A stretch of 29,077 nt of DNA from the IMG/VR virus record IMGVR_UViG_3300042864_000506, positions 1 to 29,077 of that record; one strand, given 5' to 3'. A program made the position numbers and the translations under genes. This DNA comes from a virus. Its lineage: Duplodnaviria > Caudoviricetes. Under the pieces are notes generated by a model. That model worked only from the letters and a program-made list of their open reading frames with translations. It made no database searches and was not told the DNA's origin. This document shows, piece after piece, positions 969 through 21,749 of the stretch; the first letter of the stretch is position 1; each line of letters starts with the position of its first letter.

Positions 969-2219
969 GTGAAAATATATATCCATCACCCATATCAAAA
1001 ATCTATATTTTATAAATTAGCACATAATACTACTAATAGAGAATACTTTATTGAAAATGATGAAGGTAGTGTGTTTTGTAAATATAAAAATATCGACGTT
1101 GAGTTCATTTTCAAAAAAGAAATTAGTTTTGAAGATGATGGATATCATATGTTAGATTATTTTACCGCATTTTTCTACGGGGAAATCGATTCTAAAATTG
1201 GTAAGATAGAACCAGATAGAGATTATATGGAAAGGGAAAGTCAACAAATTTTAAAAGTATTTATAAAATTATTAAAAGACTGCCCAAAAAATCAAAAATG
1301 GTTAATAGGTTATTTTAGAACTGAAAAAATTTTACAAACTAAAGACACAAATATAATTGATGAAAATTGGTTAGAAATTGAATCACTTATGGGAGAATTA
1401 AAAAATCATCACTTTATAACTGATAATATATTTTTAAATCAAAATTTAGAATCGCAGTATCCAAATTTTTATTACGCATTAACAAATACAATATTTCAAT
1501 GGAATGAAGTTGTTGCACTTAGATGGTATTATGAATTTAAACAATTGTATGATAAATTAACGTTTGATTATGATTTAATGTATAGTATTAAAAATCATAA
1601 AATTAATCGTGTGAACATTATAAATGAATTAAGTAAATTAAAAAACAATAGGTTATATTTACAACATACAGATGCGTTAAAAAATCCAGCATATAAAAAA
1701 CACTCACCGATAATAACACATATAAATACTAATTCAATAGTAGGAGATACCGACTTTTCGGATATAAGTTGTGTCCCAAATCATCAAGGATATATGGATG
1801 TGTTTTTTAGGGTTTTACCTAAAGCTAAGATGCAGATATTGTGTGAAAGTTGGTCTTGGAATAACAAAGAATTTACTTCTCAATATCTTTCAGAAAAAAC
1901 GTTTGGGTTATTATTTTCCGGTATACCATTTATTTCTACTCATGAATACCCTCTACAAATGATTGAGAAAATGTTAGATGTTCCACCTCACCCATTTTAT
2001 AATGAATCTAAAAGATGTAAAACTAACGGTAAATTATTTGCTGAATTTGTCAATAAATTTTTACAAGACTTTGATGAAAATTTTAAATTATGTAAAGAAT
2101 GGTCGGATTTGGTACACACTAAACTAATGTATAAAATTGAAAATGAAAATTCATTATTGGATTTAATAATTGGTGGAGAACTAAAAACTGAATTTGTAAT
2201 TAAAAAATCTTTAATATGA
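969..2219 (+). CDS. Hypothetical protein, possible GT-B/GT10-like glycosyltransferase
   Basis: 416 aa ORF with GTG start. The C-terminal ILCES...YLSEKTF...GIPFI resembles the ExxxxxY[IL][TS]EK...P nucleotide-sugar motif of GT10-like proteins. Confidence 0.45.
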   Translation: MKIYIHHPYQKSIFYKLAHNTTNREYFIENDEGSVFCKYKNIDVEFIFKKEISFEDDGYHMLDYFTAFFYGEIDSKIGKIEPDRDYMERESQQILKVFIKLLKDCPKNQKWLIGYFRTEKILQTKDTNIIDENWLEIESLMGELKNHHFITDNIFLNQNLESQYPNFYYALTNTIFQWNEVVALRWYYEFKQLYDKLTFDYDLMYSIKNHKINRVNIINELSKLKNNRLYLQHTDALKNPAYKKHSPIITHINTNSIVGDTDFSDISCVPNHQGYMDVFFRVLPKAKMQILCESWSWNNKEFTSQYLSEKTFGLLFSGIPFISTHEYPLQMIEKMLDVPPHPFYNESKRCKTNGKLFAEFVNKFLQDFDENFKLCKEWSDLVHTKLMYKIENENSLLDLIIGGELKTEFVIKKSLI

Positions 2220-2911
2220 TGCAAGTAGTTTTTACATACATACCCTTTAGATTAAAAGATATAACTGAAATTTATTTAAAATACACCATTGGTAATTTGA
2301 ATAACCAAAATATCACCCCAATTATTTATTCCGATAAGGATTATTTTATTAACACTAATTTAAAATATATTTGGGTTGAATTTGATGTTGAGTCTAAATA
2401 TAAAGTAGGAACATTGTGGTCTTATCCCAAATTAAAAGTATTATCGATGATTGATAAACCATTTATACATTTGGATAATGATTTAATTGTAGAAGATTTT
2501 AATAAGTTGATGAATTTAATAAATCCAAAAATATTAAACATATCACATAAACATATAATTAATGATGTGAGCACCTTTGTTGAAATTTTTAAAAAATATA
2601 CAAACAAACAACTTAACTTTGAATATTTAAATAACACCTCAATTATCGGTACCGAAAATTATAAATTGGTTAATCGTTCATATAGAGAGGTGTTAGACGT
2701 TATAGACATACATTATGATTTCTTTTTAAAGAGACATAATACAGTACCACCCGTTACCTTAAATCAGCAGTACCCAAATTTATATTTTGACAATATAAAT
2801 TATATATTTAATAAAAATCCATCGTACGATGATTTATATATAAATGGAGTATGTCATATGTCCGAAAAACAAATGAAACAAAAATTTATAACAACAAAAA
2901 AATTATTATAA
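2216..2911 (+). CDS. GT-A-like nucleotide-diphospho-sugar transferase-like protein (DUF6734-like)
   Basis: LWSYPKLKVLSMIDKPFIHLDNDLIV with a DxD motif; ATGA overlap with the upstream gene. Confidence 0.55.
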   Translation: MMQVVFTYIPFRLKDITEIYLKYTIGNLNNQNITPIIYSDKDYFINTNLKYIWVEFDVESKYKVGTLWSYPKLKVLSMIDKPFIHLDNDLIVEDFNKLMNLINPKILNISHKHIINDVSTFVEIFKKYTNKQLNFEYLNNTSIIGTENYKLVNRSYREVLDVIDIHYDFFLKRHNTVPPVTLNQQYPNLYFDNINYIFNKNPSYDDLYINGVCHMSEKQMKQKFITTKKLL

Positions 2912-3495
2912 TGGTTATTAAAATATACAATGACACAATATTAACCCCCGTAAAATGCGGCACCAGATACTTGGATAAGATATGGGAAGATAAACGAATT
3001 TATTCGGGACATGAAAAATATTTAAAATTTCCGAAAGTAAAATATATTATTGTTAGAGAACCAATGAGTCATTTAATTTCAGCTCTACATACGGAAACTC
3101 TTGATTGGATAAATCATTATACCGATAAAGATGATTTATATCACCAACTGAACGAGTTTAATAGTAATCAAGGATCAACACATTGGTGCGTTCCCTTTTA
3201 TGAATATTTTTATTATTATAGAAACAAACATGGTAATGACATTGAGGTTGTTAAATTAGAAAATTTAACAGAGTTGTTAAAACAATTGGGACACGATGTT
3301 GAATACACACCGGAAGAATATCATTTTAAAGAATATAAAAAGTGGTGGCCAAAAGATGAACTATTTCAAATGTTAAAAGATATGTACCCAAAAGAAGTAA
3401 ATTTGTTGATTGATAAAGTTAAAAATCAAACCGAATATTACAACAAATTAATAAATAATGAAATAGACAATAGATTGACGGGTAATTTACTATAA
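2911..3495 (+). CDS. Sulfotransferase family 2-like protein
   Basis: PVKCGTRYL (5'-PSB-like KxG[ST]), IIVREPMSHLISAL (3'-PB-like R..S), VVKLENL. Start moved from 2851 to the ATG at 2911, which forms a TAATG overlap with the upstream stop. Confidence 0.55.
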   Translation: MVIKIYNDTILTPVKCGTRYLDKIWEDKRIYSGHEKYLKFPKVKYIIVREPMSHLISALHTETLDWINHYTDKDDLYHQLNEFNSNQGSTHWCVPFYEYFYYYRNKHGNDIEVVKLENLTELLKQLGHDVEYTPEEYHFKEYKKWWPKDELFQMLKDMYPKEVNLLIDKVKNQTEYYNKLINNEIDNRLTGNLL

Positions 3496-4213: not shown

Positions 4214-6940
4214 ATGAAAATACTAGCACACGCACCATTCATAGGTACAACTGGTTATGCAAACCACGCACGTTCATTCTTTTGTGCACTTAATAAGTAC
4301 CACACCGTAAAAGTTAGAAACCTCACAATTGGTAACAGTTGGAAGGGAATGAATAATCGTCCACATGACGGAGAACCATATTTCACAGAAGAAATTGGGG
4401 ACATGTTAATTTTACAGACATTACATAAGGCAGATGGTAATGGAAGGGTTGACGAACCAATGTACGATTATAAGGGTGACTTTACACCAGATGTACACAT
4501 TGTACTCATGGAAACTAATAACCACTACTTCTACGATGACTATGTTGGTTATAAAATTGCATATAATGTGTGGGAATCAACTCGATACCCCGATGATTTC
4601 TTTAATCAATTATTAAAGTTTGATGAGATGTGGGTCCCAACGCAATGGCAATTTGATTGTTTGGTTGAACAGGGTTACCCAAAAGAAAAAATCTTCATCG
4701 TACCTGAGGGTGTTGACGTTGATACATTCAAACCAATTAAAAAATTCCCTAAAAGAGAAAAGGTACGTTTTGTACATTTTGGTAGATGGGATTATAGAAA
4801 AGGTACCACCGAAATATTACAAGCCTTTGCGGAAGAGTTTAAAGATGTAGACGATGTTGAACTTTTAGCATCTGTCGAAAATCCATATCCATACGATGGG
4901 TTAAAGACAACAGAAGAGAGAGTTAAACATTATGGTATTGATACTAAGAATATTCAATTTTTAAATTTCCCCTCAAGGGAGGAATACGTAAATTATTTAC
5001 AAACCGCACATGTATTTGTTTCATGTGCTAGAAGTGAGGGTTGGAACTTACCTTTAATTGAGGCGATGGCATGTGGAACACCCTCAATTTATTCCGATTG
5101 GGGTGGTCAATTACAATTTGCACAAGGTAAAGGTGTACCAGTTGGTATTAAAGGATTAAGACCTGCTAATATTGAACATAAAGAATGGCCAGGTGAATAT
5201 TGTGAACCAGATTGGGATGACTTGAAGCGTCAGATGAGACAGGCATACGATTACAATACCGCTATGTGGATAAAGGCGGTTAGTGATGCTAAAGATATTC
5301 ACGAGAAATTTAATTGGGATACGGTTGCTAAGGGTGCGTGTGATATATTGGAAAGAAATAAGAAACCATTTGCTTTTGTAACAACAGGTAACTTAGGTTA
5401 CATGCCGGTAATAGAGAAGTTAGTTCAATCATTATTGGAATTCTCTGAACAAAAGATTTTGGTTTATGGTATTGATTGTGAAGTTCCATTCGACTATCCA
5501 AATGTTATTAAGAGAACAATTACCGTCCCTAAGATTTCTGAACACGATAAATGGTATTGGAAACAATGGTCTTGTATTGAAGCATTAAAAGAAAACTTTG
5601 AAAACTTTGTTTGGGTTGATGGTGACGTGGTTGTTAACCATAACATTGACGACATTAGACAATACTTTGGTCAAATCGAGAACTACCCAATTGCAGATAT
5701 TCACGTACAAGAAGAATTCTTCGGTATGTACGATAATGGTAACAAGTCCCAATTATTCAACGAACAACTTGCTAATGAATGGGGTATTGCTAAACATAAT
5801 CCATACATGCACATTTGTCTTTATGTTTACAATAAAAATTGTGGTGAATGGTTTGATGAATTACTTACTCATTATGTTTCATTAATGGAAACTAAACCTG
5901 AAGATTACAAGAGATTATATCTTTGGAATGATGAGGGTATTGATAATGCAATGAGATGGAAACACAGTCACACGAAACATTTACCCCTATCTAATTTTGA
6001 CACTTCGTCTTATGATGGGGATGCTGGATTTATTGATAAAACATTACATCAGTTTTATAAATTTTGGAACGAGGAAGGTCCACAGAATTTCGATAGAATA
6101 TTTGGTTATCAATTCATACCGAAAGATAAATCTAAAATCATTTATTTCCATGGTAACAAGAACGCTGAGATTTCAGATAAGATGATTGAGTTTATCAAAA
6201 TGGAAAGAGACAAATCGTTTTATAAATCACACTGTTTCTATACGGATGTTTACAAAGTTGAAAACTTCTCCAAATATTATGAATATCAGGGTAGTACCAT
6301 GGACGTTGCCGGTAAATTTGGCTGGGCGGTTGCTATCTTCCATGAGATTTTTAACTTATTAGATTACTATAAGAATAGGGAAAGAACGATTAACGAAGGA
6401 GACACTGTTGTTGACTTAGGTGGTAACATCGGAGTGTTCAATAGATGGGCGTATAGTCAAGGGGCTAGTAGAGTAATATCATTTGAACCTGACAAGAGAT
6501 ACTTTAAATTACTTTCCTTAAACGCAGACCCTCGTTCAGTATTATTCAACGCGGCTGCAAGTGATTCTATTGGGGAATTAAATTTATTTGAAAGTACTCA
6601 CTTAGGTGGATCCAATTTATTTGGTACACAAGAAGGAGCTAAAGAATATAAGGTAAGAACATATACATTAAATTACCTTTTTGAAACGGGACTTGTAGAT
6701 AAGATAGATTTCTTGAAAATAGATATTGAGGGAGCTGAACATCACGCATTGAAAGGAATTAGTGATGAAAATTTAATGAAGGTTAAAACAATTTCAATGG
6801 AATATCACCATGGTCATTTTAATTATGATGAAGAATTAAGACAGAGTATGATTGATAGGATGTTAAGATTAGGGTTTAACTCATATATTTTATTTATGGG
6901 TTCAAATAATGCATTACAAATGATATATTTTACAAGATGA
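4214..6940 (+). CDS. Three-domain protein: GT4 glycosyltransferase + GT-A glycosyltransferase + FkbM-family methyltransferase
   Basis: aa ~1-380: GRWDYRKG and SEGWNLPLIEAMACGTP (GT4 E-X7-E). aa ~385-665: FVWVDGDVVV (DxD), WNDEG, YFHGNK. aa ~700-908: VVDLGGNIG, FEP, IDFLKIDIEGAE, MEYH (FkbM). Confidence 0.85.
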   Translation: MKILAHAPFIGTTGYANHARSFFCALNKYHTVKVRNLTIGNSWKGMNNRPHDGEPYFTEEIGDMLILQTLHKADGNGRVDEPMYDYKGDFTPDVHIVLMETNNHYFYDDYVGYKIAYNVWESTRYPDDFFNQLLKFDEMWVPTQWQFDCLVEQGYPKEKIFIVPEGVDVDTFKPIKKFPKREKVRFVHFGRWDYRKGTTEILQAFAEEFKDVDDVELLASVENPYPYDGLKTTEERVKHYGIDTKNIQFLNFPSREEYVNYLQTAHVFVSCARSEGWNLPLIEAMACGTPSIYSDWGGQLQFAQGKGVPVGIKGLRPANIEHKEWPGEYCEPDWDDLKRQMRQAYDYNTAMWIKAVSDAKDIHEKFNWDTVAKGACDILERNKKPFAFVTTGNLGYMPVIEKLVQSLLEFSEQKILVYGIDCEVPFDYPNVIKRTITVPKISEHDKWYWKQWSCIEALKENFENFVWVDGDVVVNHNIDDIRQYFGQIENYPIADIHVQEEFFGMYDNGNKSQLFNEQLANEWGIAKHNPYMHICLYVYNKNCGEWFDELLTHYVSLMETKPEDYKRLYLWNDEGIDNAMRWKHSHTKHLPLSNFDTSSYDGDAGFIDKTLHQFYKFWNEEGPQNFDRIFGYQFIPKDKSKIIYFHGNKNAEISDKMIEFIKMERDKSFYKSHCFYTDVYKVENFSKYYEYQGSTMDVAGKFGWAVAIFHEIFNLLDYYKNRERTINEGDTVVDLGGNIGVFNRWAYSQGASRVISFEPDKRYFKLLSLNADPRSVLFNAAASDSIGELNLFESTHLGGSNLFGTQEGAKEYKVRTYTLNYLFETGLVDKIDFLKIDIEGAEHHALKGISDENLMKVKTISMEYHHGHFNYDEELRQSMIDRMLRLGFNSYILFMGSNNALQMIYFTR

Positions 6941-7596
6941 GTACATTAGACAAATTAGCAAAATCGTTCGGAACCGATAAATCTTCCGATAACCACAATT
7001 ATTGTGTTAAATATGAAAAGTACCTACCATTTAATAGATACGATAACCTAAACATTTTGGAAATAGGTATTTTAGATGGTAAGTCATTATTAACATGGAA
7101 AGACTATTATTATCGAGCTAATATATTAGGTATTGATATTAATCCCGATTGTAAGAAGTATGAAGAATCTCGAATATCAGTTGAGATAGGTTCACAAGCG
7201 GATGGTAATTTCTTATCAAGAACTTGGCAACAATATGGTCCATTTGACATGATATTAGATGATGGTTCACATATTAATGACCATATGATTTATTCGTTTG
7301 AACATTTATTTGGTTCGGTTAAATCGGGAGGTGTCTATGTCATTGAAGATATCGGTTGTTCGTATTGGGAGGACTACGGCGGTGGTTATCTTTATCCTGG
7401 TAGTGCTATGGAATACTTTAAAAGATTATCAGATGATATTAATTTTAGAGGGTTAATGAATTTTGACCACTCAAATGTACACGCAAGAAGAGAAGATGTT
7501 TTGACTGATTTATCAAAACAAGTACAACCGGGTTGTAGAACAGATATTGAATCGATAAATTTCCTTAACGGAATCATTATAATAACTAAACGATAA
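6937..7596 (+). CDS. SAM-dependent sugar O-methyltransferase, MycE/TylE-like catalytic domain
   Basis: GTDK...HNY, ILEIGI, GIDI, GSQAD, GPFDMILDDGSHIN and GGVYVIED closely match the motifs of the MycE/TylE/OleY class. Confidence 0.8.
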   Translation: MSTLDKLAKSFGTDKSSDNHNYCVKYEKYLPFNRYDNLNILEIGILDGKSLLTWKDYYYRANILGIDINPDCKKYEESRISVEIGSQADGNFLSRTWQQYGPFDMILDDGSHINDHMIYSFEHLFGSVKSGGVYVIEDIGCSYWEDYGGGYLYPGSAMEYFKRLSDDINFRGLMNFDHSNVHARREDVLTDLSKQVQPGCRTDIESINFLNGIIIITKR

Positions 7597-9713
7597 TGGC
7601 ATATAGTTTTGACGAAGATATCTTCGTAATTGATTGTTGGATTGACACTAAAGAAAAAGAACAAACACTTCTTAATTTAATTAATAGAGTAAAAGTTTAT
7701 AACGTACCAATACTATTATGTGGACATAGTCCCGTGAGTATCGAAATACAAAAACAAGTTGATTATTTTTTATTCGATAAAAATAATAACATTCTATTAG
7801 AAAAAGACTTTAACGAGTATGGGGTGGTAAGTGATAGATGGTCTATCATGAATGACTATAAAGTTTTTAACAAAGTAAATTTTCATCACGACTACGCAAT
7901 TTGGGAAACGATGAGAAACGCATTCCAATTTGTAAAAAGATTAGGTAAAAAATACATACACTTCCTCGAGTTCGATAATTTACCGGACGAGATTCAATAT
8001 CGTCAGGCTTTCATGGAATATGTAAGAGGTAATGATGTGGTTGTTCAAGAGTACCTTGAAGGATCAACAAGAGAACAAGACCCATATTGTGCAACATATA
8101 TATTCTCAATTAAAACCGATATCGCTAATCAGATGATTGAGAAGATTAATACGAAAGAGGAATATTTTAAAAATAGACCCGGTAAGTGGCAATTAGAAAA
8201 GGTTTTCTATCAAACCCTAAGGGAAATCACCGGTAGTATATTCGTTAGTAAGTATATCCCAAATGACGAGGAGTTAAACATTTATGCAGCTTGGAATCGT
8301 AACGGTATATTAAGAAACGGGGCAAGATTTCAAACATACTTGGCGGTAGACCATCATAAAAAATTACACATACACTTTATATCAGGATTTTCTGAAAAAC
8401 CCGCTGATAAAGATTATTTGGTTGAGGTCAATTATAAAAACCGTAATTTCTTCCATACTGTTACCAAAGGATCCTATCAATTAGAATCATTAGGTGAATA
8501 TGTTGAGGGAGAAACGGTTAAAGTATTTTACCAAGGGGTTGAGGTATTTTCTGAAACTTTAACCAAAAATGTTGATGAATTTAGAAGACTGAACAAATTA
8601 GAATGGAAGGTTAAAGAATCTAATAGAAGATTTAACATTAATTTCATAGACGGTCCGTACGTTGAGATATTAGATAATGTTGATTTGTCATATAGAGTTG
8701 ATTTTATTAATAGAAGAAATAATAAAATAGAATACACAACCACATTAAGAAGTAACCATTGGTCAAAATCATCCATAAAATATTTCGTAGATTGGGAAAT
8801 CAGGATTACGGGAATCGATAATGATTATGTTGGGACTTATTTGATGGATCTTAAGGGACAAAGAGTTTTAATTAGTTATGAAACAAAGTCCTTAGGTGAT
8901 AACATTGCATTTATACCATATGTAGAGGAATTTAGAAAACAGAAGGGTTGCCATGTAGTTTGTTCAACATTTCACAACGACTTATTTAAAAAAGATTATC
9001 CTGAAATTGAATTTATTGAACCAGGAACCAACGCCGAAAATATATATGCTCTTTATAGATTGGGTGTTTTTTATGAAAATAAACAAATTGATGACTCAAG
9101 ACACCCTATAAACCCAATTAAGGAACCTTTGATGAAAGTGGCTACGGATATTTTGGGTATACAGTATCGAGAAACCAAAGTAAAACTTCCTAAATTATCT
9201 AAAACAAAAAAGAATAGGGTATGTATTGCCATTCACTCAACTTCACAAGCAAAATATTGGAACAATCCGAATGGATGGCAAGATGTTGTGGATTACATTA
9301 AAGAAAAGGGGTACGAAGTTAGACTCCTATCGAGAGAAGAGGATGGGTATATGGGTAATTCAAATCCTAAAGGTGTTACATTACAACCAAGAGGTACTAC
9401 TAAAGAAGTATTAAAGACAATACAAGAATCAAAACTATTCATCGGAATTAGTAGTGGTTTAAGTTGGTTAGCTTGGGGAACAGATACTCCCGTTGTAATA
9501 ATATCAGGTTTCACCGATAAACATTTGGAACCTATGGATGGAATTACAAGAATTATAAATAAAGAGGTATGTAACGGATGTTGGCATACTCATGAATTCG
9601 ATCCGGGGGATTGGAATTGGTGTCCCGTACATAAAAATACCGATAGACAATTTGAATGTTCTAAAGAAATATTATCTAATGATGTAATTAAACAGATAGA
9701 AAAATTTTTGTAA
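7596..9713 (+). CDS. Two-domain glycosyltransferase: N-terminal GT-A-like domain + C-terminal Aah/TibC-type (autotransporter O-heptosyltransferase-like) domain
   Basis: C-terminal half has SLGDNIAFIPYVEEFR, CIAIHSTSQAKYWNNPNGW, FIGISSGLSWLAW, VVIISGFT and the four-Cys motif CNGCW...WCPVHKNTDRQFECSK, all characteristic of Aah/TibC. N-terminal half has IHFLEFD (DxD-like). Confidence 0.82.
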   Translation: MAYSFDEDIFVIDCWIDTKEKEQTLLNLINRVKVYNVPILLCGHSPVSIEIQKQVDYFLFDKNNNILLEKDFNEYGVVSDRWSIMNDYKVFNKVNFHHDYAIWETMRNAFQFVKRLGKKYIHFLEFDNLPDEIQYRQAFMEYVRGNDVVVQEYLEGSTREQDPYCATYIFSIKTDIANQMIEKINTKEEYFKNRPGKWQLEKVFYQTLREITGSIFVSKYIPNDEELNIYAAWNRNGILRNGARFQTYLAVDHHKKLHIHFISGFSEKPADKDYLVEVNYKNRNFFHTVTKGSYQLESLGEYVEGETVKVFYQGVEVFSETLTKNVDEFRRLNKLEWKVKESNRRFNINFIDGPYVEILDNVDLSYRVDFINRRNNKIEYTTTLRSNHWSKSSIKYFVDWEIRITGIDNDYVGTYLMDLKGQRVLISYETKSLGDNIAFIPYVEEFRKQKGCHVVCSTFHNDLFKKDYPEIEFIEPGTNAENIYALYRLGVFYENKQIDDSRHPINPIKEPLMKVATDILGIQYRETKVKLPKLSKTKKNRVCIAIHSTSQAKYWNNPNGWQDVVDYIKEKGYEVRLLSREEDGYMGNSNPKGVTLQPRGTTKEVLKTIQESKLFIGISSGLSWLAWGTDTPVVIISGFTDKHLEPMDGITRIINKEVCNGCWHTHEFDPGDWNWCPVHKNTDRQFECSKEILSNDVIKQIEKFL

Positions 9714-9750
9714 TTATAAATTTATTTGATACTTAAACATAAATGGCGAG

Positions 9751-9767
9751 TATTTATATGGTATAAT
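9751..9767 (+). promoter_or_regulatory. Putative late-type motif TATTTATA followed by extended -10 TGgTATAAT
   Basis: TATTTATA at 9751-9758 and TG-n-TATAAT at 9759-9767, in the 65-nt gap before the tail-fibre ATG at 9779. Confidence 0.4.
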
Positions 9768-9778
9768 ATCATATTTAG

Positions 9779-11797
9779 ATGAAAATATTTGAACCATTAA
9801 TAACAGGGTCCCTTTCAGTATCAGGTTCGGCACACGTAAGAGGTGATTTAACCGTACTTGGGACTATAAACGCTACGATTAGCGGTACAACATCAAACGC
9901 GGTGAGTGCGTCAACCGCACTGTACGCAAATGATGCAGATAAATTAGACGGTAAAGATTCTTCCGAATTTGCGATAACAGGAAGTAATATATTCAAAGCG
10001 AACCAAACAATTACAGGTTCACTTTATGTTACTGACGATATCATATTAAATGGACAGTCTTACACTGGACAAACTTCAGGAACATCAGGTACAAGTGGAA
10101 CTGCCGGAACAAGTGGAACTTCAGGTTCTTCGGGTTCGAGCGGTAGTGCCGGTACCAGCGGTTCTTCAGGAACGTCTGGTAGTTCTGGTTCATCTGGAAC
10201 ATCAGGATCCGCGGGAACATCAGGTTCTAGTGGTTCTTCAGGATCTTCAGGATCAAGTGGAACTGCCGGTACGTCAGGTTCTAGCGGTTCTTCAGGAAGT
10301 TCAGGTACATCAGGTTCTAGTGGTTCATCAGGTTCAAACGGGTCTTCAGGAACATCTGGTACCTCGGGTTCAAACGGGTCTTCAGGAACATCTGGTACCT
10401 CAGGTTCATCAGGTTCAAGCGGAACATCTGGTTCTAGCGGTAGTTCAGGTTCTTCAGGAACGGCCGGTACTTCAGGTACCTCGGGTAGTTCAGGTTCTTC
10501 AGGAAGTTCAGGTAGTTCTGGGTCTAGTGGAACGGCCGGTACGTCAGGTTCTAGCGGTTCTTCAGGAAGTTCAGGAACTGTTACTTTAAGTGGCACAACA
10601 GATAATGGTTTATTAACGTTGAACGGTAGTTCACCTAACGTTAGTGTTGAACCTAACTTAACTTTTGATGGTACAACATTAACAGTTACGGGTGACATTT
10701 TAGTTACTAATAATCTATTAGTTCAAGGTACAAATACAAATTTACAAGTTACCAACTTATATGTTGAGGATAAATTAATCACATTAGCAAGTGGGTCATT
10801 ATCTGCAGCTGCAGCTAATGGTGCGGGTATTGAGGTTGTTGGTCCAGCAACGGGAGCAACATTCACATATGCAAATGCTGACGATAGTTGGAACTCGAAT
10901 AAAAAATTAAATGTTCCATCACTTTCAATTAACGGAACTTTATATTCCGCAGCAACCTCAGGCTCATCAGGTTCCTCTGGTTCAAGTGGGTCATCAGGTT
11001 CTTCTGGAAGTTCTGGTTCAAGCGGGTCATCAGGTACATCAGGAACATCAGGTTCTAGTGGATCATCAGGTTCTAGTGGATCATCAGGTTCGTCAGGTTC
11101 AAGTGGTTCGTCTGGAACAAGTGGCTCTTCAGGTTCTAATGGATCTTCGGGTACATCAGGTTCTAGTGGATCATCAGGTTCTTCAGGAACAAGTGGTTCA
11201 TCAGGAAGTTCTGGAAGTTCAGGAACATCAGGTTCTAGTGGTTCTTCAGGTAGTTCAGGAACATCAGGTTCTAGCGGTTCTTCAGGTAGTTCAGGTTCAA
11301 GTGGATCATCAGGTACAACAACAATTACAAACGCATCTGCTGACCGTATAATGACAAGTGAAGGTGGGGTTACTCTAAATGCGGAAGCGGGTTTAACATT
11401 TAATGGAACAACACTATTTGTAAACGGAGCATTAGGTGTAGGTACATCAACACCAACCACTACGGGTTTAATCAGAGCAACAAATGATGTGATTGCATTC
11501 TTTGGTTCTGACGAAAGATTGAAAGAAAACATATTTACAATTACAGGTTCTTTAGATATATTAAAACAAATAAACGGTTATTATTTCGATTGGAAAGAAA
11601 TGCCGGGTATACATGAGAACGAAGGACGTGATATTGGGGTAATTGCACAAGAAATAAATGCGGTACTACCTGAAATTGTAACTACAAGAGATAATGGATA
11701 TATGGCCGTTAAATATGAAAAATTAGTGGCACTATTAATTCAGACAAACAAAGAGTTATTAGAGAGAGTTGAAGCTTTAGAGGCAAAAAATAAATAA
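9779..11797 (+). CDS. Tail fibre/spike-like virion protein with two Ser/Gly triplet tracts and a C-terminal intramolecular chaperone (peptidase S74) domain
   Basis: C-terminal FGSDERLKENI...YFDW...IGVIAQE...PEIV...VKYEKLVALLI followed by a coiled coil is the S74/CIMCD signature. ADKLDGKDS and the ITGSL beta motifs are typical of phage fibres. Confidence 0.88.
   Translation: MKIFEPLITGSLSVSGSAHVRGDLTVLGTINATISGTTSNAVSASTALYANDADKLDGKDSSEFAITGSNIFKANQTITGSLYVTDDIILNGQSYTGQTSGTSGTSGTAGTSGTSGSSGSSGSAGTSGSSGTSGSSGSSGTSGSAGTSGSSGSSGSSGSSGTAGTSGSSGSSGSSGTSGSSGSSGSNGSSGTSGTSGSNGSSGTSGTSGSSGSSGTSGSSGSSGSSGTAGTSGTSGSSGSSGSSGSSGSSGTAGTSGSSGSSGSSGTVTLSGTTDNGLLTLNGSSPNVSVEPNLTFDGTTLTVTGDILVTNNLLVQGTNTNLQVTNLYVEDKLITLASGSLSAAAANGAGIEVVGPATGATFTYANADDSWNSNKKLNVPSLSINGTLYSAATSGSSGSSGSSGSSGSSGSSGSSGSSGTSGTSGSSGSSGSSGSSGSSGSSGSSGTSGSSGSNGSSGTSGSSGSSGSSGTSGSSGSSGSSGTSGSSGSSGSSGTSGSSGSSGSSGSSGSSGTTTITNASADRIMTSEGGVTLNAEAGLTFNGTTLFVNGALGVGTSTPTTTGLIRATNDVIAFFGSDERLKENIFTITGSLDILKQINGYYFDWKEMPGIHENEGRDIGVIAQEINAVLPEIVTTRDNGYMAVKYEKLVALLIQTNKELLERVEALEAKNK
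10073..10576 (+). repeat. Tract 1: 56 x (S/T)-(S/A/N)-G triplets (9-nt period)
   Basis: 504 nt = 168 aa with Gly at every third residue and varied synonymous codons. Contains a 36-nt tandem duplication (10331-10402) and a 41-nt exact repeat (10265-10305 / 10535-10575). Confidence 0.95.
10955..11314 (+). repeat. Tract 2: 40 x (S/T)-(S/N)-G triplets
   Basis: 360 nt = 120 aa with Gly at every third residue and no interruption. Confidence 0.95.
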
Positions 11798-11841: not shown

Positions 11842-12057
11842 ATGGGTTTAATACCTACAACAGGAAGCGAAGTAAGTATGGGTAGAATTGGGGTGGCTCT
11901 CGGAGTCATCCCAAATGCCACTACACAGGTGGCACTAAACGCACAATTAGGTACGGGTCGTAACCGTTCATTATCAGGAGTTGCTAGTATTGCTTCAGGA
12001 TCTCAAACCGAAGAAGGGGCTAGTTTTGGTGGTTTGGAAACAACAGGTACGTATTAA
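11842..12057 (+). CDS. Small Gly/Ala/Ser/Thr-rich protein, probably virion- or fibre-associated
   Basis: 71 aa (MGLIPTTGSEVSMG...); composition resembles the fibre gene directly upstream. Confidence 0.55.
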   Translation: MGLIPTTGSEVSMGRIGVALGVIPNATTQVALNAQLGTGRNRSLSGVASIASGSQTEEGASFGGLETTGTY

Positions 12058-12058
12058 T

Positions 12059-12087
12059 TTTACATTTTCATAAAATTTATTTATATT
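12059..12087 (+). promoter_or_regulatory. Putative promoter TTTACA-N17-TATATT
   Basis: Hexamers at 12059-12064 and 12082-12087; the ATG at 12094 follows after 6 nt. Confidence 0.55.
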
Positions 12088-12093
12088 ATACGT

Positions 12094-12537
12094 ATGAATC
12101 TTACGTATAAGAATTATCCATCAAAATACGAATTACAATACGTTAAATGGAACGGAATTAACTTTGATAGAGAAAGACTCATCAAGTTTATTAAACGTCT
12201 CAGATTAACGTATTTTTTGTCTTTTATACCCTATTACAGAAAGGAACATCAGATACTCATCCAAATATTAAACACATACGATAAAGTTCGGATTGAAGGT
12301 ATGTTGAGTGGGGATGAGAACATTTTAAGAATGTGTCTTATTGAGAAATGGGCGAGAATTGCATCAGTCGACATCCTTCTAACAAACACATACTCTAGAT
12401 TAACTTACACAACAATTAGTAATTTACCAATAAAAGACTTCCAACTTCTATCTAAAAGAGTTGAGGAGATGGTAAAAGCGGGAAGAAATTTAACATTTCA
12501 ATCCGATAACTCATCAAATAATATACCCGGCACATGA
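12094..12537 (+). CDS. Hypothetical helical protein
   Basis: 147 aa ORF with its own promoter-like element and an ATGA overlap with the next gene; no recognised motif. Confidence 0.6.
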   Translation: MNLTYKNYPSKYELQYVKWNGINFDRERLIKFIKRLRLTYFLSFIPYYRKEHQILIQILNTYDKVRIEGMLSGDENILRMCLIEKWARIASVDILLTNTYSRLTYTTISNLPIKDFQLLSKRVEEMVKAGRNLTFQSDNSSNNIPGT

Positions 12538-13181
12538 AAAAATCATTAAACAATAGTTCAATGTGGGACGTTAGACCCGTAAAATTATCAATACTTGTTC
12601 CAACAAGAGATACAGTACATTCACATTTCGCATACTGTTTAACACAATTAGTTAGAACAACATCGGAGGCGGGAATTGATACATATCTATTCTTTGATTC
12701 AAATACCATATTATTAAATCAACGTGAAAAACTAATTGAGAAAGCGAAAGAAGTTCGTTCTGATTATGTTTTATGGTTAGATAGCGATATGATGTTCCCG
12801 TCAACCACAGCATTAAGATTATTGGAACATAATAAAGATATTGTGGCGTGTAATTACATGAAACGAGCAAAACCCTTAAAGACTGTTGCATACACTGACT
12901 TAACAAATTGGGATAGTTGGGTTCCTCTCGAACCTAAAGATGAATTGGTAAAGGTTGAAGGAGTTGGTATGGGTTGTATGTTAATGAAATTAAATATATT
13001 TGACAAACTACAAAAACCATATTTTGAATTTACATACAAGGAAGACAGTCAAGACTGGTATGGTGAAGATTTTAATCTACTTAAAAAATTAAGAGATTTA
13101 GGGTACGATGTTTTAATTGATACCATATTGAGTATGGACATTAAACATCTTGGGATATATGCGTTCGGTTCAGAAAATTAA
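12534..13181 (+). CDS. GT2-like (GT-A) glycosyltransferase
   Basis: ILVPTRD, YVLWLDSDMMFP (DxD), GVGMGCMLMK, GEDFN, IKHLG. Confidence 0.8.
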   Translation: MKKSLNNSSMWDVRPVKLSILVPTRDTVHSHFAYCLTQLVRTTSEAGIDTYLFFDSNTILLNQREKLIEKAKEVRSDYVLWLDSDMMFPSTTALRLLEHNKDIVACNYMKRAKPLKTVAYTDLTNWDSWVPLEPKDELVKVEGVGMGCMLMKLNIFDKLQKPYFEFTYKEDSQDWYGEDFNLLKKLRDLGYDVLIDTILSMDIKHLGIYAFGSEN

Positions 13182-14287
13182 ATCTGTCTATTAATTTTTA
13201 TTAACATGTTACCTGTTTTATATTCGCCAGGTTCGTAATAAGGTATTGATAATCTTATTAATTGTAACATAGACACATCTTCTTCTGTAAATGGAGATGT
13301 TTCCGTAATCATTACATCAACACCATCTGTAAGGGTAAATTTAGACCTTAAATCATAACGGGTATTCTTCTGTTCATTCTCAATATAGTCGTCAGGAATC
13401 AACCCTAAATCAATCTTATCGAAGAAGGGTTCCACATTGTATAATAAACTTTTATTACGAGTCTTTAATCCCATAGTAAAAGTATTATATGTAAATGTAT
13501 TCTCTTCCCAATATCTAATTTGATTAAATCCGTGTATTGGTAATCCCCACTTTCTAATGAAATTTCTATTAGAAGACATTTCAATTTTCAATCTATCATT
13601 TTTATAGTCGTCACTAAATCTTGATGTCTGCGAAACAAAATGATAGGTTATTGCTGAGTCACAGGTTTTTAATTCATAACCTTTTAGTTTCGCACGAATT
13701 AAAAAATCATCATCTTCACAAAAACATGGTACAAAACTAAACCCGTCGAAGTAACCAACATCTTCGAACATTTTTTTATAACCACTCATAAAGAATACTG
13801 CACCATCATAAAGATTGTCACCATCTTTCCATTGATTAACATAACTATCGAAACGGAACTTATCGAAATTTTCAAATCCCGAACCTAAATCCATTAACAC
13901 TTTACCCGGTCTTTTATGTCCTGCAAATATGGGAGGTTCGATTGTTGTATAAGATAACAACATATTGGGTTTTAATAATCTTTCAATCGATTCTAAAAAT
14001 CCTTCACCTATCACCATATCGTTATGTATCAAAACTAATTTTTCAGTATCGACTAATTTAATACCAACGTTATATGTGTCAGAGAAAGTTAATCTATCAT
14101 CATCATGAAATATGGTTACGTAGTCGTCAATCTCAGATATTTCTTGTAACCATTCTTTAGTACCATCACTTGAACCACCACTACTAATAACCAAGGGTGC
14201 CTTTGGATATAATTCACGAAGATGATTATAACAATTTTTTGTTAAATCTAATTTATTTAAAACCGCTAATACAAAAGTTATATCCAT
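13178..14287 (-). CDS. GT2-family glycosyltransferase
   Basis: GSSDGTKEWL, LVLIHNDMV, VGYFD...EDDDF, YHFVSQTS. Confidence 0.85.
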   Translation of the reverse strand: MDITFVLAVLNKLDLTKNCYNHLRELYPKAPLVISSGGSSDGTKEWLQEISEIDDYVTIFHDDDRLTFSDTYNVGIKLVDTEKLVLIHNDMVIGEGFLESIERLLKPNMLLSYTTIEPPIFAGHKRPGKVLMDLGSGFENFDKFRFDSYVNQWKDGDNLYDGAVFFMSGYKKMFEDVGYFDGFSFVPCFCEDDDFLIRAKLKGYELKTCDSAITYHFVSQTSRFSDDYKNDRLKIEMSSNRNFIRKWGLPIHGFNQIRYWEENTFTYNTFTMGLKTRNKSLLYNVEPFFDKIDLGLIPDDYIENEQKNTRYDLRSKFTLTDGVDVMITETSPFTEEDVSMLQLIRLSIPYYEPGEYKTGNMLIKINRQI

Positions 14288-15276
14288 TATTTTGGTTGTT
14301 TGTTAATCCACTCATATGTTTTTATTAAACCATCATATAATGGTTGAGTGGGTTGCCATCCTAATTTTTCTTGAATTAATTTATTGTCACTGTTTCTTCC
14401 TCTTACACCTGTCGGACCATCAATGTGTTTAACATATACCTCTTTACCACTAATGTCGGTAACATATCGAACTAGTTGATTGATAGTGACCATTTCATCA
14501 CTACCAATATTAACGGGACCCGTGAAATTAGAATTCATTAATCTAATCACACCCTCGAGGCATTCATCGATATATAAGAATGAACGAGTTTGTTCTCCAT
14601 CACCCCACACTTCAATCTCACCACCATCTAACACTTCAGAAATTTTTCTAGATATGGCTGCGGGTGCTTTCTCTTTACCACCTTTATATGTTCCGTAAGG
14701 ACCAAAGATGTTATGAAAACGAGCAATTCTTACATCAATACCATAATTTCTATTGTACGCCAAATAAAGTCTTTCACTAAATAATTTCTCCCATCCATAT
14801 TCAGAATCAGGATTAGCAGGATATGCTGAAGATTCTTCACAATTTGGGTTGTTAGGGTCCAATTGATTATGTTCAGGATACATACACGCAGAAGAAGAAT
14901 AAAATATTTTCTTCACACCCATTGAAGTTGCGTAATGTAAAACATTTAAATTAACTAATGAAGAATTGTGCATAACGTTCGCATCGTTTTCACCAGTAAA
15001 AATATAACCAGCACCTCCCATATCTGCTGCCAATTGATACACCTCATCAAATGCACCAACCTCTGTTGTTGATTGATTAGGGACAAACATTATTTTTGAC
15101 ACAAAATTTGGATTTCTTAAATCACCTAAAATAAATTCAGAACAAAATTCATTTTCATTAAAGTATTCATGATTTTTAATGTCAACTGCTCTAACAAAAT
15201 GACCCTCATCTTTTAATCTTTTAGAAAGGTGACCACCAATAAAACCGCCACCACCTAACACCAATATCTTTTTCAT
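14287..15276 (-). CDS. NAD-dependent epimerase, GDP-mannose 3,5-epimerase (GME)-like
   Basis: GGGGFIG, VYQLAADMGGAGYI, YSSSACMYP (catalytic Cys), YGWEK (YxxxK), GKEKAPAA (catalytic Lys region), GVRGRNSDN. Confidence 0.88.
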   Translation of the reverse strand: MKKILVLGGGGFIGGHLSKRLKDEGHFVRAVDIKNHEYFNENEFCSEFILGDLRNPNFVSKIMFVPNQSTTEVGAFDEVYQLAADMGGAGYIFTGENDANVMHNSSLVNLNVLHYATSMGVKKIFYSSSACMYPEHNQLDPNNPNCEESSAYPANPDSEYGWEKLFSERLYLAYNRNYGIDVRIARFHNIFGPYGTYKGGKEKAPAAISRKISEVLDGGEIEVWGDGEQTRSFLYIDECLEGVIRLMNSNFTGPVNIGSDEMVTINQLVRYVTDISGKEVYVKHIDGPTGVRGRNSDNKLIQEKLGWQPTQPLYDGLIKTYEWINKQPK

Positions 15277-16293
15277 TTAAATCAAATTTAATTTTACAAA
15301 TATATCTTTATTAACACTAACCCAACTTTGTAATTTTTCCAACCCCTCTTCCACACCAATTTTAGGTACCCAACCAATTGTGTTCTTTAGTTTAGTAATA
15401 TCACTCACATATATTTTTTGGTCACCTGGTCTCCAATCACTGTATTGATAGTTCAGTACATTTTGTTTACCCAACGTATTCAATAACTCTAACAACGATA
15501 ATGTGTTATCTTCACCACCACCAACATTGAATATTTGACCTTTACATTTATCTATGTTATTAATTATTGTTTCATAAAGGTTAATCAGGTCGTCAATGTG
15601 TAGAACGTCTCTCACTTGTTTACCGTCACCATAGATAAAAAACTTTTTACCGAATGTTGAGGCGATTGTAAACCATGCAACCCAACCTTGGTCTTCAATA
15701 CCAAATTGATTTTGACCATAGATACACGACTGTCTTAATACCACAGTTTTTAATTCATATATTCTACTGTAATCTCTAACATACTGATCTGCGGAACCTT
15801 TTGAACAACCATAAGGTGAATGAAAATCTAATGGAGTTTCTTCATTTACACCACCATCAAACACATATGAATATCTCTTTTCTTCCTCAATTAAATCACT
15901 TTGGTAGTTACCATATACCTTATTTGTTGATGCGAATAACAAAGTTGTATTAGGTGAATGAAGTCTTATAGATTCCAATATATTAAACGTTCCTAAAGCA
16001 TTTATTTCAAAATCCTCTCTTGGGTTTGTTACTGAAAATGTAACAGCAACTTGACCTGCCAAATGAAGTACAACGTCAGGTTGTATTTTTTTAAACACGT
16101 CCTCTATATCAAAGAAGTTACGTATGTCTTTAACATGTAACGTGATGTTTTTATTATTTGAAATCGTTTCATAGTTTTCCATATTACCTTTACGAGAAAC
16201 GTTGTCGACGATATGGATTTCATTATCTGTTGAAAAATACTTTGCTGCGTTTATACCAATAAAACCTAACCCACCTGTAATTAAAATCTTCAT
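15277..16293 (-). CDS. rfbE: CDP-paratose 2-epimerase (CDP-tyvelose synthesis, RfbE/Tyv)-like SDR
   Basis: GGLGFIG, HLAGQVAVT, STNKVYG, FHSPYGCSKG, RQSCIYG..QFGIEDQGWVAWF, GKQVRDVL, WRPGDQ. Confidence 0.82.
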   Translation of the reverse strand: MKILITGGLGFIGINAAKYFSTDNEIHIVDNVSRKGNMENYETISNNKNITLHVKDIRNFFDIEDVFKKIQPDVVLHLAGQVAVTFSVTNPREDFEINALGTFNILESIRLHSPNTTLLFASTNKVYGNYQSDLIEEEKRYSYVFDGGVNEETPLDFHSPYGCSKGSADQYVRDYSRIYELKTVVLRQSCIYGQNQFGIEDQGWVAWFTIASTFGKKFFIYGDGKQVRDVLHIDDLINLYETIINNIDKCKGQIFNVGGGEDNTLSLLELLNTLGKQNVLNYQYSDWRPGDQKIYVSDITKLKNTIGWVPKIGVEEGLEKLQSWVSVNKDIFVKLNLI

Positions 16294-17357
16294 ATTTTTG
16301 TTTTTATTAAGTCATTCCACATATCGTAGATTAATTTTTTTCTTTGTTCGTTGAATAATTGCATGTTAATACTAATTTCATTTGGATTCACTTCGTTCAC
16401 CAATTTATTTAAATGTTCGAATGATTCAAATTGTTGTATATGTGGCATCCATTTTGTATCATAGAAATCCGAATACTGTAACCATTCATAAACACTATCA
16501 TGGTTTGTATAATCATTTGGGTCAAACTGTCCTTTATAATCTATTACAGATTTACCACCACGACCCAAATCACCATTCCACGATATTTCTTTTAAGATAC
16601 CGGGGTAACCTTTTTTATATAAATCGATAAGGAAATCTTTTGTTGGTACAAATAGCGGAATGTTTGCTGTGTACTGCTCAAATATCGACATGTACGATAT
16701 CTGATATGGCATGTGAATAATACCCTTGAACTTAGTTAAATCCTTATGTTTATGTGATTGAAATATATCACCTTTGTATGTGATGTTGGGTGATGTAAGT
16801 TCGTTAATTTTACCCTTAGAGTAGTATAGGAAGTCCTCACGTTCTGGATTATAATATTCACCGTAGTAATCACAAATACTTGGTATGTGTTTCACTTCTC
16901 TTTCGATGAAGTCCTCCATATATTTTTTATCATAGAGGTTATTTGCAACCAATATGATTTTACCACTATCAACACCGTCTCTTAAAAAATCATTAAAATA
17001 TTCCCAATCATTTTTTCTAAACGAGAACGGCCATTCATATCTAATTGGATTATTAATGATGATTGGCTTATCAAAATGTTTGTAAAGTAATGAGAACGGA
17101 GGTGGATAAGTTACAATGAATGCGTCATAATCTTTTAACTCGTCTTTATACGTATTATAAAATTCGTCCGAAAATTGAGACGGAGTCATGTTTCTCCAAC
17201 GACCACCATCTAACATAGGTATGGATGCTCGTTCTTTATTGAAAACCCATGTGTGGTCAGATAAAGACCAGTCGGTAACTTCATGACCTAAGTCATTAAA
17301 TATTTTTCTCATATCGGCAATGATAGAGATATGTAAGTCTATATTAAAAAATTTCAT
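16290..17357 (-). CDS. Hypothetical protein, possible GT-B glycosyltransferase
   Basis: 355 aa ORF inside the operon; GIIHMPYQISYMSIFEQYTANIPLFVP resembles the GT-B C-terminal E...P donor-binding region. Confidence 0.5.
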   Translation of the reverse strand: MKFFNIDLHISIIADMRKIFNDLGHEVTDWSLSDHTWVFNKERASIPMLDGGRWRNMTPSQFSDEFYNTYKDELKDYDAFIVTYPPPFSLLYKHFDKPIIINNPIRYEWPFSFRKNDWEYFNDFLRDGVDSGKIILVANNLYDKKYMEDFIEREVKHIPSICDYYGEYYNPEREDFLYYSKGKINELTSPNITYKGDIFQSHKHKDLTKFKGIIHMPYQISYMSIFEQYTANIPLFVPTKDFLIDLYKKGYPGILKEISWNGDLGRGGKSVIDYKGQFDPNDYTNHDSVYEWLQYSDFYDTKWMPHIQQFESFEHLNKLVNEVNPNEISINMQLFNEQRKKLIYDMWNDLIKTKI

Positions 17358-17973
17358 TAGTCAAATTGTATAATTTATTCATTAATTCGGTTGTCTTAAT
17401 ATAATGAAAAGTAATGAAATTTTGTACATCATTATCATTAATTTTGTAAAATTCGGGCGGTTGGGATTTGAATAATGGGTAATCTTGTATTGGTATGTTT
17501 AGGTCCCTTAAAGCATATCCCAAGGTAACATCAGCATATGTAGTATTTCTATTAGGAACATTACCTTTAATTAATTGTAAAATCTTATTACTAACCAATT
17601 TTCCAGCACCTCCAGATACATAGTACAATGATTTATCGGAATGGTATGTGTTTAATTCCTGACCATAAACAATAGTTTCATCAAAATCCGTTATTTTTTC
17701 GGATAGTAATTTTGTATTGACAAACGTATCATTATCACAAAATAAAAACCAATCATAGTCTTGATATCTATCAGGTATTAAATTTAAAATATTACAAAAC
17801 TTTTCTTCGTTTGATTTATAACTGGAATCATTTGAAGATTTAATTATATTTTTATCAAAATCCTCATGATCGGAATAAAATATACAATCAACATTTTGAC
17901 CCCACGTATTCATTACATTATCATACCTCTCATTTTGATTTTGGGTATGCATAATCACATATAAAATTTTCAT
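17344..17973 (-). CDS. Fringe/GT31-like beta-1,3-glycosyltransferase
   Basis: NTWG, YDWFLFCDNDTFVN (DxD), YVSGGAG, ADVTLGYAL and ITFHY occur in the motif order of Fringe/C1GalT-type enzymes. Confidence 0.75.
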   Translation of the reverse strand: MKILYVIMHTQNQNERYDNVMNTWGQNVDCIFYSDHEDFDKNIIKSSNDSSYKSNEEKFCNILNLIPDRYQDYDWFLFCDNDTFVNTKLLSEKITDFDETIVYGQELNTYHSDKSLYYVSGGAGKLVSNKILQLIKGNVPNRNTTYADVTLGYALRDLNIPIQDYPLFKSQPPEFYKINDNDVQNFITFHYIKTTELMNKLYNLTNEIF

Positions 17974-18626
17974 CGTATTGCTAAATAATCGTTATTAAAT
18001 GGTTCATCGTTAATATTCATTCTTTCACCAATAAACCTACCGTTTTCTCTTTTTATTGGAAATGGTTTCTTTTCAAAAAAATCATCATGTGTACATCTAT
18101 CATTTTCAAACACGTTGTATATTGTTTTTAAAAAAGTTTGATCTATACCATATCCCATAGTTTTATTTTTGGAAAAGTTTTCAATCGACTCTTTCATTGG
18201 TATTGTGTTACCTTTGATTCCCCACATACCACCTAATATACCTAAAGCGTTGTTACCATACGGTATTTGATGTGCCGGATGGTCTCTCATAACATGAATT
18301 GTTTTTCCACTCTCAATCCACTCATTTACCGCCATTTTTTCACGAATAGATAATCTTGAATCACCATCTCTAAAAATTGCAAATTCACAATCTGGTAAAT
18401 CCGAGGCAAAAAATCTCCAAAACATACCGTGAGTGTGACCATCCACATTAACTAATTTAACATTTAAATTTTCTAAAATGTTAAGGGTTTCTGTTGGTAC
18501 TGAATTATCATGATAGACTATCATCTGCCAACCCGGATATATTTTAGGTACTTGTTCAGCATTTTTTACCATCCCAATGTTATACAGTTCATTGTCTCCC
18601 CATAAAGAATAACTTATATATCTCAT
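17970..18626 (-). CDS. GT-A-like hypothetical glycosyltransferase
   Basis: ISYSLWG, MFWRF, IFRDGDSRL (DxD), HVMRDHPAH, ILGGMWG, DQTFL. Start placed at ATG 18626, just after the upstream stop, rather than 18638. Confidence 0.6.
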   Translation of the reverse strand: MRYISYSLWGDNELYNIGMVKNAEQVPKIYPGWQMIVYHDNSVPTETLNILENLNVKLVNVDGHTHGMFWRFFASDLPDCEFAIFRDGDSRLSIREKMAVNEWIESGKTIHVMRDHPAHQIPYGNNALGILGGMWGIKGNTIPMKESIENFSKNKTMGYGIDQTFLKTIYNVFENDRCTHDDFFEKKPFPIKRENGRFIGERMNINDEPFNNDYLAIR

Positions 18627-18627
18627 A

Positions 18628-21041: not shown

Positions 21042-21658
21042 AAACCGCTATAATATTTGTTTTGTTTTTCTTGACGATCAATTGTCTTATGATGTTGTAT
21101 ACAATATTCTTCATCATTAGGTAATGATGAGAATTTTTGACCCCCGATTATTCTTTCGTGAACCTTACCGTACCAAGTCATACCTTTACGGTATATTCGT
21201 CCTTGTGCATCTGGAAAGTTTACCCAACCCTTTTCGTTAAGTCTCCACCCCCACTTATCGATATGTTCTTGAGTTATACCATTAACAGTATTGATACGAG
21301 GGACAAAAATTAAATCAACCTTTGGGTTTAGTTCTAATATCTGATTAAGATTTTTAACAATATACTCACTAATCATTTCATCCGCATCTAGCTGATAGAT
21401 GTAATCACCAGTACAATACTCGTTTAATTTATTTTTCCAATCGGCGAAGTTACCCTCAAAATCAAACCCTCTCCATGTTTGAACATTTGGTTTGATATTG
21501 AATGGTTGTAAATATTCAAACACTTCAGGATTACCATTCTTATTATCGTAAAGAATGACAATCTCATCTTGAGGTCTCTTGTGTTCTAATATGAACGGAA
21601 CCAACTTCTTGATTTCCTCTAACTCGTTGCAAACTGTTATTGCGTAACTTATCTTCAT
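21038..21658 (-). CDS. GT2-family glycosyltransferase
   Basis: MKISYAITVCNE, YIYQLDADE (DxD), FPDAQGRIY, GKVHERI. Start placed at ATG 21658 rather than 21676. Confidence 0.8.
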   Translation of the reverse strand: MKISYAITVCNELEEIKKLVPFILEHKRPQDEIVILYDNKNGNPEVFEYLQPFNIKPNVQTWRGFDFEGNFADWKNKLNEYCTGDYIYQLDADEMISEYIVKNLNQILELNPKVDLIFVPRINTVNGITQEHIDKWGWRLNEKGWVNFPDAQGRIYRKGMTWYGKVHERIIGGQKFSSLPNDEEYCIQHHKTIDRQEKQNKYYSGL

Positions 21659-21749
21659 ATTTTTTTTTATTTTCATTTAATGTTAACTCCTCACATCTCC
21701 AACACCAATCTTTGTCCGATGTGTCCCACATATGTTTGTCACATTTCAT
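21564..21749 (-). CDS. Possible micro-protein with CxxH/CxxC metal-binding motif
   Basis: MKCDKH...WCWRC. Its ATG overlaps the upstream TGA (ATGA) and it fills an 87-nt gap, but its tail overlaps the GT2 gene by about 95 nt. Confidence 0.35.
   Translation of the reverse strand: MKCDKHMWDTSDKDWCWRCEELTLNENKKKYEDKLRNNSLQRVRGNQEVGSVHIRTQETSR

Follow-up and report, generated by a model that had tools for sequence, protein, structure and literature searches.

The closest described systems to the one reported here are TibC-TibA and Aah-AIDA-I (BAHT family; TIGR04414; PDB 4RAP/4RB4; PMC4358343), in which an iron-finger protein heptosyltransferase is encoded next to a Ser-rich adhesin. The residue roles of TibC used below are taken from that paper. 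We have analysed a 29,077-nucleotide (nt) stretch of viral DNA (IMG/VR record IMGVR_UViG_3300042864_000506, positions 1 to 29,077; 'the window') in which the gene for a 705-amino-acid (aa) enzyme is followed by that for a Ser-rich fibre. We consider it probable, with the reservations given below, that this TibC/Aah-family enzyme, fused to a GT-A-type domain, glycosylates many (Ser/Thr)-Ser-Gly serines of the phage's own fibres, most likely with heptose. Judged from the sequences, glycosylation of the fibre by the enzyme is highly probable, and heptose, the likely sugar, carries the larger share of that probability. The main features are:

7596..9713, + strand: 705-aa fusion gene (GT-A-type domain, beta-rich linker domain, TibC/Aah-family transferase)
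8625..9704, + strand: TibC/Aah-type domain, aa 344-703 (TIGR04414, 279 bits; alignment to 4RAP)
9570..9659, + strand: four-Cys iron-finger motif, C659, C662, C676 and C688 (invariant in 66/66 unique viral sequences)
9779..11797, + strand: fibre gene, 672 aa with 182 Ser; likely virion fibre and acceptor
10073..10576, + strand: repeat tract 1, 56 (S/T)(S/A/N)G triplets, aa 99-266
10955..11314, + strand: repeat tract 2, 40 triplets, aa 393-512
11507..11680, + strand: Peptidase_S74 chaperone domain, aa 577-634 (E 2.7e-16)

An earlier note on this DNA, made from the letters alone, had described much of this correctly: the two open reading frames (ORFs) and the 65-nt gap between them, the motifs SLGD (aa 432), STSQAKYWNN (aa 548) and SSGLSWLAW (aa 619), the four Cys and the S74 domain are all found where it placed them. 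Its 96 Ser/Thr-Ser-Gly type triplets form two unbroken tracts and are, strictly, 87 SSG/TSG and nine TAG/SAG/SNG.

The 705-aa protein is, by its sequence, a genuine TibC-family relative and in all likelihood works like TibC; it lacks two features of the BAHT enzymes, Arg286 and an autotransporter partner. Residues 344-703 score 279.3 bits with TIGR04414 (curated cut-off 200, E 4e-83). The best lipopolysaccharide (LPS) heptosyltransferase model, TIGR02193 (WaaC), gives 34.9 bits, under its equivalog cut-off of 185.3. The match to TibC 4RAP has an E value of 1e-54 versus 0.27 for WaaC, and the predicted fold has a TM score of 0.81 to TibC over 375 columns of 4RAP versus 0.54-0.57 to WaaC (11-14% identity). 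The model contains both the N-terminal beta-barrel and the GT-B catalytic domain. A Pfam GT9 match (PF01075) is also present in the protein. The grouping with Aah/TibC that the earlier note proposed is thus upheld, and identity as an LPS-core GT9 enzyme (WaaC/WaaF) is ruled out by profile scores, alignment E values and fold comparison.

The catalytic Asp110 of TibC corresponds to D435 and is kept in 66/66 unique viral sequences. Positions K230, W305 and F368 are likewise invariant, and T226 is kept in 63 of the 66. In the alignment to 4RAP the donor-binding residues T226, K230 and W305 are retained as T549, K553 and W624. At position 300, where TibC has Pro, the phage enzyme has S619, a Ser as in AAH, and AAH is stated in PMC4358343 to accept both heptose isomers. 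The thumb/ring residues F265/V266/F368 align with Y585/M586 and F686 (pLDDT is under 50 at 581-588), and the iron-finger region of the model is also of low confidence.

Both repeat tracts of the fibre are free of Pro. Read in a Gly-X-Y register, the 96 triplets have Ser (65) or Thr (31) at X and Ser (87), Ala (6) or Asn (3) at Y. The residue preceding Gly is therefore Ser in 87 of 96 triplets. TibC, according to PMC4358343, modifies Ser and not Thr. The fibre scores over the cut-off for PF01391 (collagen repeat) and PF13884 (S74) and has PHROG tail-fibre matches, driven in part by the repeat. S74 domains chaperone trimeric fibres. The first tract of 56 triplets is written with 31 different 9-base units, so that it is no simple DNA slippage run; a slippage artefact is ruled out by this mixture of codons. 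Much longer repeat proteins exist elsewhere in the viral collection (>4,400 aa with 1,250-1,400 triplets; L147:4295-17534 and L134:7010-20630).

The pairing of enzyme and repeat extends well beyond the window. A scan for the repeat pattern in 2 of the 64 parts of the viral collection gave 155 loci, which extrapolates to about 4,800 repeat stretches in the whole. From these we took the 50 longest distinct contigs in which the repeat is real on translation (spurious SRG, CSG, ASG and TTG-only matches and L287 were left out, three STG-type contigs were kept) and searched 46. The enzyme is present in 24 (23 over cut-off), including 6/6 near-complete ones (66 to 548 kb). For comparison, 50 of 129 loci with collagen GPx repeats were taken (41 contigs of >=20 kb, nine of unlisted length); among the 49 searched the enzyme was found in none, nor in any of the 11 near-complete ones. 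With both sets restricted to 35-140 kb, the figures are 19/39 for repeat contigs and 0/27 for collagen controls. Starting from the enzyme (50 of 80 loci taken, 46 searched), the repeat is found in 23/46 and in seven of eight near-complete genomes; the eighth carries a TNG/TSG fibre 5 kb from the enzyme. A further control used the 50 longest of 80 contigs bearing the window's epimerase, that is, a glycan island. Here the enzyme is over cut-off in 4/5 repeat-positive contigs (two of these four are closely related to the window) versus 0/45 repeat-negative ones, one of which has a weak 127-bit match. A lineage control based on window positions 25375-26067 retrieved just three relatives and was unusable. 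The co-occurrence with (S/T)SG proteins, which the earlier note had asked for, is strong against both the collagen and the glycan-island controls.

Among 50,697 phage records, four match the enzyme: that of Microcystis phage Mel-JY01 (47%) and three from huge phages. Two of the four were checked and both carry the repeat; the cultured phage Mel-JY01 therefore has enzyme and repeat. In Mel-JY01 (PP395634.1, L628:2-3052) the repeat ORF opens the record on the + strand and codes for 1,016 aa or more, where GenBank shows hypothetical genes on the opposite strand; the enzyme is encoded at 4750-8430. The 735-kb phage LR756501 has 1,448 repeat-pattern matches, and the nearest relative of the window, G002, has 361.

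Of 80 loci in bacterial genomes 79 were classed, four as unclear. A repeat protein lies nearby in 13 of the 21 loci whose enzyme lacks Arg286 (some of which resemble phage contigs inside metagenome-assembled genomes) versus none of the 54 that keep it. A cellular group (Methylomicrobium, Methylobacter, Polaromonas and kin; support 1.0) is nested among the viral sequences, apart from the classical Aah clade, in a FastTree tree with midpoint root. The cellular partners are proteins of 98-316 aa with a signal or lipoprotein peptide (assigned by eye) followed by TSG/SSG/TAG runs; the L553 partner instead has a run of Ser without periodicity. They are unrelated to the fibres, and only the repeat is common to both. 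No other observation speaks as strongly for the repeat as the likely acceptor. The smallest partners, in Betaproteobacteria, are predicted lipoproteins of about 100 aa whose mature part is barely more than the TSG/SSG/TAG repeat and whose genes are convergent with the enzyme gene (L551:9130-9429, L554:9199-9531 and L555:9156-9452).

Concerning the sugar, the earlier note held that no ADP-heptose genes are present and that the donor need not be heptose. The former is true of the 34 window ORFs scanned, but HldE/HldD-like genes occur elsewhere in the nearest genome and beside many homologs, making heptose likelier than the note allowed. G002 is a 316-kb viral contig, 95% complete, with an enzyme domain 99% identical to that of the window. 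In this contig the genes for a cupin and for HldE-nucleotidyltransferase-, HldE-kinase- and HldD-like proteins are clustered, and the best match of each is a heptose family. The presence of such genes in a genome with a 99%-identical enzyme is what makes heptose the likely sugar. HldE-like genes also lie near 19 of 80 enzyme loci, often overlapping the enzyme stop codon, and an HldE-kinase is found in 11/22 enzyme-positive versus 0/10 enzyme-negative records. HldE is over cut-off in 14/14 bacterial genomes tested, and most Gram-negatives have HldE. A GDP-heptose route was rejected, as five records contained no GHMP kinase. According to PMC11573728, CDP/UDP-heptose is made by enzymes with a (F/L)XXGRSTT motif; this exact motif is absent from the phage nucleotidyltransferases seen near the enzyme. 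The cupin gene recurs beside HldE genes (G002, G006 and L034) and may encode an unrecognised heptose-pathway enzyme. At L013:5711-8060, cupin, APS-kinase-like, HldD-like and HldE-kinase genes lie directly 3' of the enzyme.

The remaining parts of the fusion protein, the two genes before it and a motif upstream of the fibre are:

7596..8303, + strand: N-terminal domain, aa 1-236, GT-A / nucleotide-sugar transferase fold (predicted fold, Foldseek, alignment)
8328..8606, + strand: all-beta segment, aa 245-337 (predicted strands)
4214..6940, + strand: 908-aa gene with GT4, middle domain and FkbM methyltransferase (domain matches; upstream position kept in close homologs)
6937..7596, + strand: 219-aa methyltransferase gene overlapping both neighbours (between the same two genes in close homologs)
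9750..9758, + strand: GTATTTATA motif 5' of the fibre; likely late (structural-gene) promoter element

The fused GT-A domain of the earlier note is supported by a GT-A-type predicted fold (pTM 0.82) but not by Pfam, where aa 1-236 have no match. The best VIA match is mannosylglycerate synthase (Z 14.4, rmsd (root-mean-square deviation) 3.0 over 169 residues), with nucleotidyltransferases scoring within 1 Z of glycosyltransferases. E125-x-D127 is invariant across 17 aligned homologs, an ExD motif where GT-A enzymes have a DxD-type. In the ESM Atlas the domain falls among unnamed viral clusters, the nearest named one being WavE (82% of members, score 0.92), which we treat as a lead only. It may be a chain-extending transferase. 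The beta segment was considered as a duplicate of the TibC barrel and rejected, since BLAST gives no similarity to the barrel that follows.

The fusion partner varies among homologs and the TibC-type domain is constant. The GT-A domain may be swapped for, or joined by, GT4 and methyltransferase domains. For example, at L087 the GT4 and FkbM parts of a gene like that at 4214-6940 are fused to the TibC-type domain, and in Mel-JY01 the GT4 part is. L089 has two TibC-type genes in one locus, standalone and fused (2168-3298 and 7813-9936), and extra short GT9-like genes accompany the TibC-type gene at L075:5847-7948, G004 9091-9465, G148 and G170.

The 908-aa gene likely belongs to the same glycan pathway as the enzyme, and the 219-aa protein is likely a glycan O-methyltransferase. 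The products of a convergent glycan-gene block on the - strand (13178-24813: three NAD epimerases/dehydratases, a GT2-like, a Fringe-like and two GT4 genes) may contribute to this glycan. A TylF-type O-methyltransferase gene lies at 27473-28213. Immediately 3' of the fibre (11842-13181, +) are a 71-aa ORF, a 147-aa ORF and a GT2/Anp1-like gene; this trio is kept in several relatives, even in L010, whose fibre is repeat-free. A 76-aa ORF (21746-21976, -), distant from the real capsid gene, matches the Gp23 major capsid protein over a short length, and similar fragments occur in G002 and G003. G002 itself has a Gp23-type capsid gene, and genes for tail sheath, tube, portal and terminase are present in G003, a 324-kb relative. 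The source is therefore very likely a large contractile-tailed phage.

The motif GTATTTAT is found 5' of 10/10 homologous fibres shown. In G003, [GA]TATTTAT stands 5' of 37/308 genes. These include sheath, tube, portal, terminase, head protease, baseplate wedge and all three SSG fibres, and not the enzyme. Since the motif is shared with structural genes, it suggests that the fibre is expressed late, apart from the enzyme.

A number of points weigh against the proposed heptosylation of the fibre. The adenine-contacting Arg286 is replaced by V605, in a fixed register 19 residues before W624. Loss of this Arg weakens TibC activity according to PMC4358343. Arg is present at this position in only 2/66 unique viral sequences (absent in 64), and in 41/145 motif matches from the 150 best representatives of a wide library. 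With this Arg lost, the donor may carry another nucleotide, and CDP- or UDP-heptose may be of use to the viruses. The heptose-type genes of G002 score under their family cut-offs, GmhA is absent from G002 (it is found in 3/30 records) and neither HldE part was found in G003. The acceptor repeat differs from the beta-helix motif of TibC. All the association counts are inflated by relatedness, as they include related genomes, and their P values overstate independence. As to the enzyme-then-fibre arrangement of the earlier note, the link is one at genome level: enzyme and repeat are strictly adjacent at only 16/80 loci, within 10 kb at 26 more and unpaired within the DNA covered at 38. Immediate adjacency is thus clade-specific, the fibre has its own upstream motif, and no direct enzyme-repeat fusion occurs among the 150 best representatives. 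At L010 a 61%-identical enzyme precedes a homologous fibre without the repeat, on a 27-kb contig that is repeat-free. Two repeat-positive contigs (G011, 84% complete, and the STG-type G008, 77%) are enzyme-negative. The virion location of the fibre, though likely, is deduced from its upstream motif and tail-fibre matches.

Several of these points would fit a different sugar, transferred by the same enzyme to the same acceptor from a donor that the three NAD-dependent epimerases/dehydratases encoded in the window would produce. Loss of Arg286, the presence of these three nucleotide-sugar genes, the lack of an HldE-kinase match in half of the enzyme-positive records and of HldE in G003 can all be read in this way. 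We nevertheless find it unlikely: the heptose-contacting T226, K230 and W305 and the AAH-like Ser are kept, a standalone subfamily that overlaps the HldE-nucleotidyltransferase gene also lacks Arg286, and HldE is over cut-off in every bacterial genome tested, common as it is in Gram-negatives. A more remote reading has the GT4 or GT-A domain prime the serine and the TibC-type domain act later, placing heptose on a glycan already begun, in the manner of GT9 enzymes on LPS. The GT4, GT-A and methyltransferase domains that accompany the enzyme, often fused to it, and its Pfam GT9 match speak for this. It is improbable given that bacterial enzyme and repeat pairs have no other glycosyltransferase among the 15 neighbours scanned, that the fused partner is the variable part, and that the domain is far closer to TibC than to WaaC. 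We give similarly little weight to an enzyme acting on the host surface (receptor masking or superinfection exclusion), with the fibre link due to hitch-hiking in a glycan island. The window is such an island, the enzyme gene is without the fibre's upstream motif, and L010 is a counter-example to the pairing. Hitch-hiking sits poorly with the 45 repeat-negative islands, none of which has the enzyme over cut-off, and with a pairing that persists at a distance, in opposite orientation, in small and huge phages and in bacteria.

If the fibre is heptosylated as we propose, NDP-heptose would come, during infection, from the HldE/HldD-like enzymes of the phage working with GmhA/GmhB of the host. Serines would then be primed in the cytoplasm by the TibC-type domain, probably ahead of trimerisation of the fibre by its S74 domain. 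Extension and capping of the glycan would fall to the fused GT-A domain, the GT4 encoded upstream and the methyltransferases. We predict that the resulting fibre is densely glycosylated and that other repeat fibres of this genome are probably substrates of the enzyme as well.

A broader view, which we offer as a speculation, is that (Ser/Thr)-Ser-Gly serves a phage-centred TibC branch as a glycosylation signal that can be moved from protein to protein. The sugar coat would allow a Pro-free Gly-X-Y chain to form a stable 'glyco-collagen' in thousands of viral contigs, which methanotrophs and Betaproteobacteria would have taken over for their surface proteins. Glycosylated Thr stabilises collagen in a vent worm. 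If the proposed heptosylation is correct, TibC-type protein heptosylation would extend from E. coli-type adhesins to virus particles, with a new class of acceptor, and a common aquatic phage fibre type would be a glycoprotein, with a bearing on host recognition, grazing and particle stability. It would also provide a function for the heptose-biosynthesis genes encoded by viruses, whose role is called unsolved in PMC11573728. For glyco-engineering, a short repeat that has its own transferase would serve as a tool. We found no publication that describes a TibC/Aah homolog of a phage, and none on Mel-JY01, in a search that covered neither annotation tables in supplements nor subscription papers; 'heptos', 'TibC' and 'collagen' are all absent from the text of PMC7824862, and the passages of PMC12801897 yielded nothing relevant.

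Other virion and collagen-like glycoproteins offer partial parallels. Mycobacteriophages glycosylate virion proteins (Freeman et al. 2023, as cited in PMC12619734 and PMC12582341) using phage-encoded glycosyltransferases, as predicted here for a virion protein. Their glycans are described there as attached to the C-terminal ends of the subunits that form capsid and tail tube, whereas a TibC-family enzyme would here have about 150 potential sites in the fibre repeat. Bacillus BclA, C. difficile BclA1 and mimivirus collagen have Gly-X-Y repeats bearing O-linked sugars (PMC8968730). Those repeats are Pro/Thr-rich, in contrast to the phage repeat, which is Pro-free, has Ser in Y and is paired with another enzyme family. 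WaaC/WaaF (GT9) share the GT-B fold and the PF01075 match and are without barrel or iron finger. TibC-TibA and Aah-AIDA-I remain the nearest systems. The phage enzyme differs from theirs in being viral, in the replacement of Arg286, in its fusion to other transferases and in its place in a clade separate from the Arg286 bacterial enzymes (FastTree support 1.0 versus 0.91, midpoint root), and its partner is a Gly-X-Y repeat (collagen-like/S74) fibre instead of an autotransporter. It shares with them the fold, the catalytic Asp, T226/K230/W305, F368, the four-Cys iron-finger motif and a Ser-rich partner encoded downstream, has hydrophobic residues aligned with those of the thumb, and is 37% identical to a plasmid Aah found beside AIDA-I.

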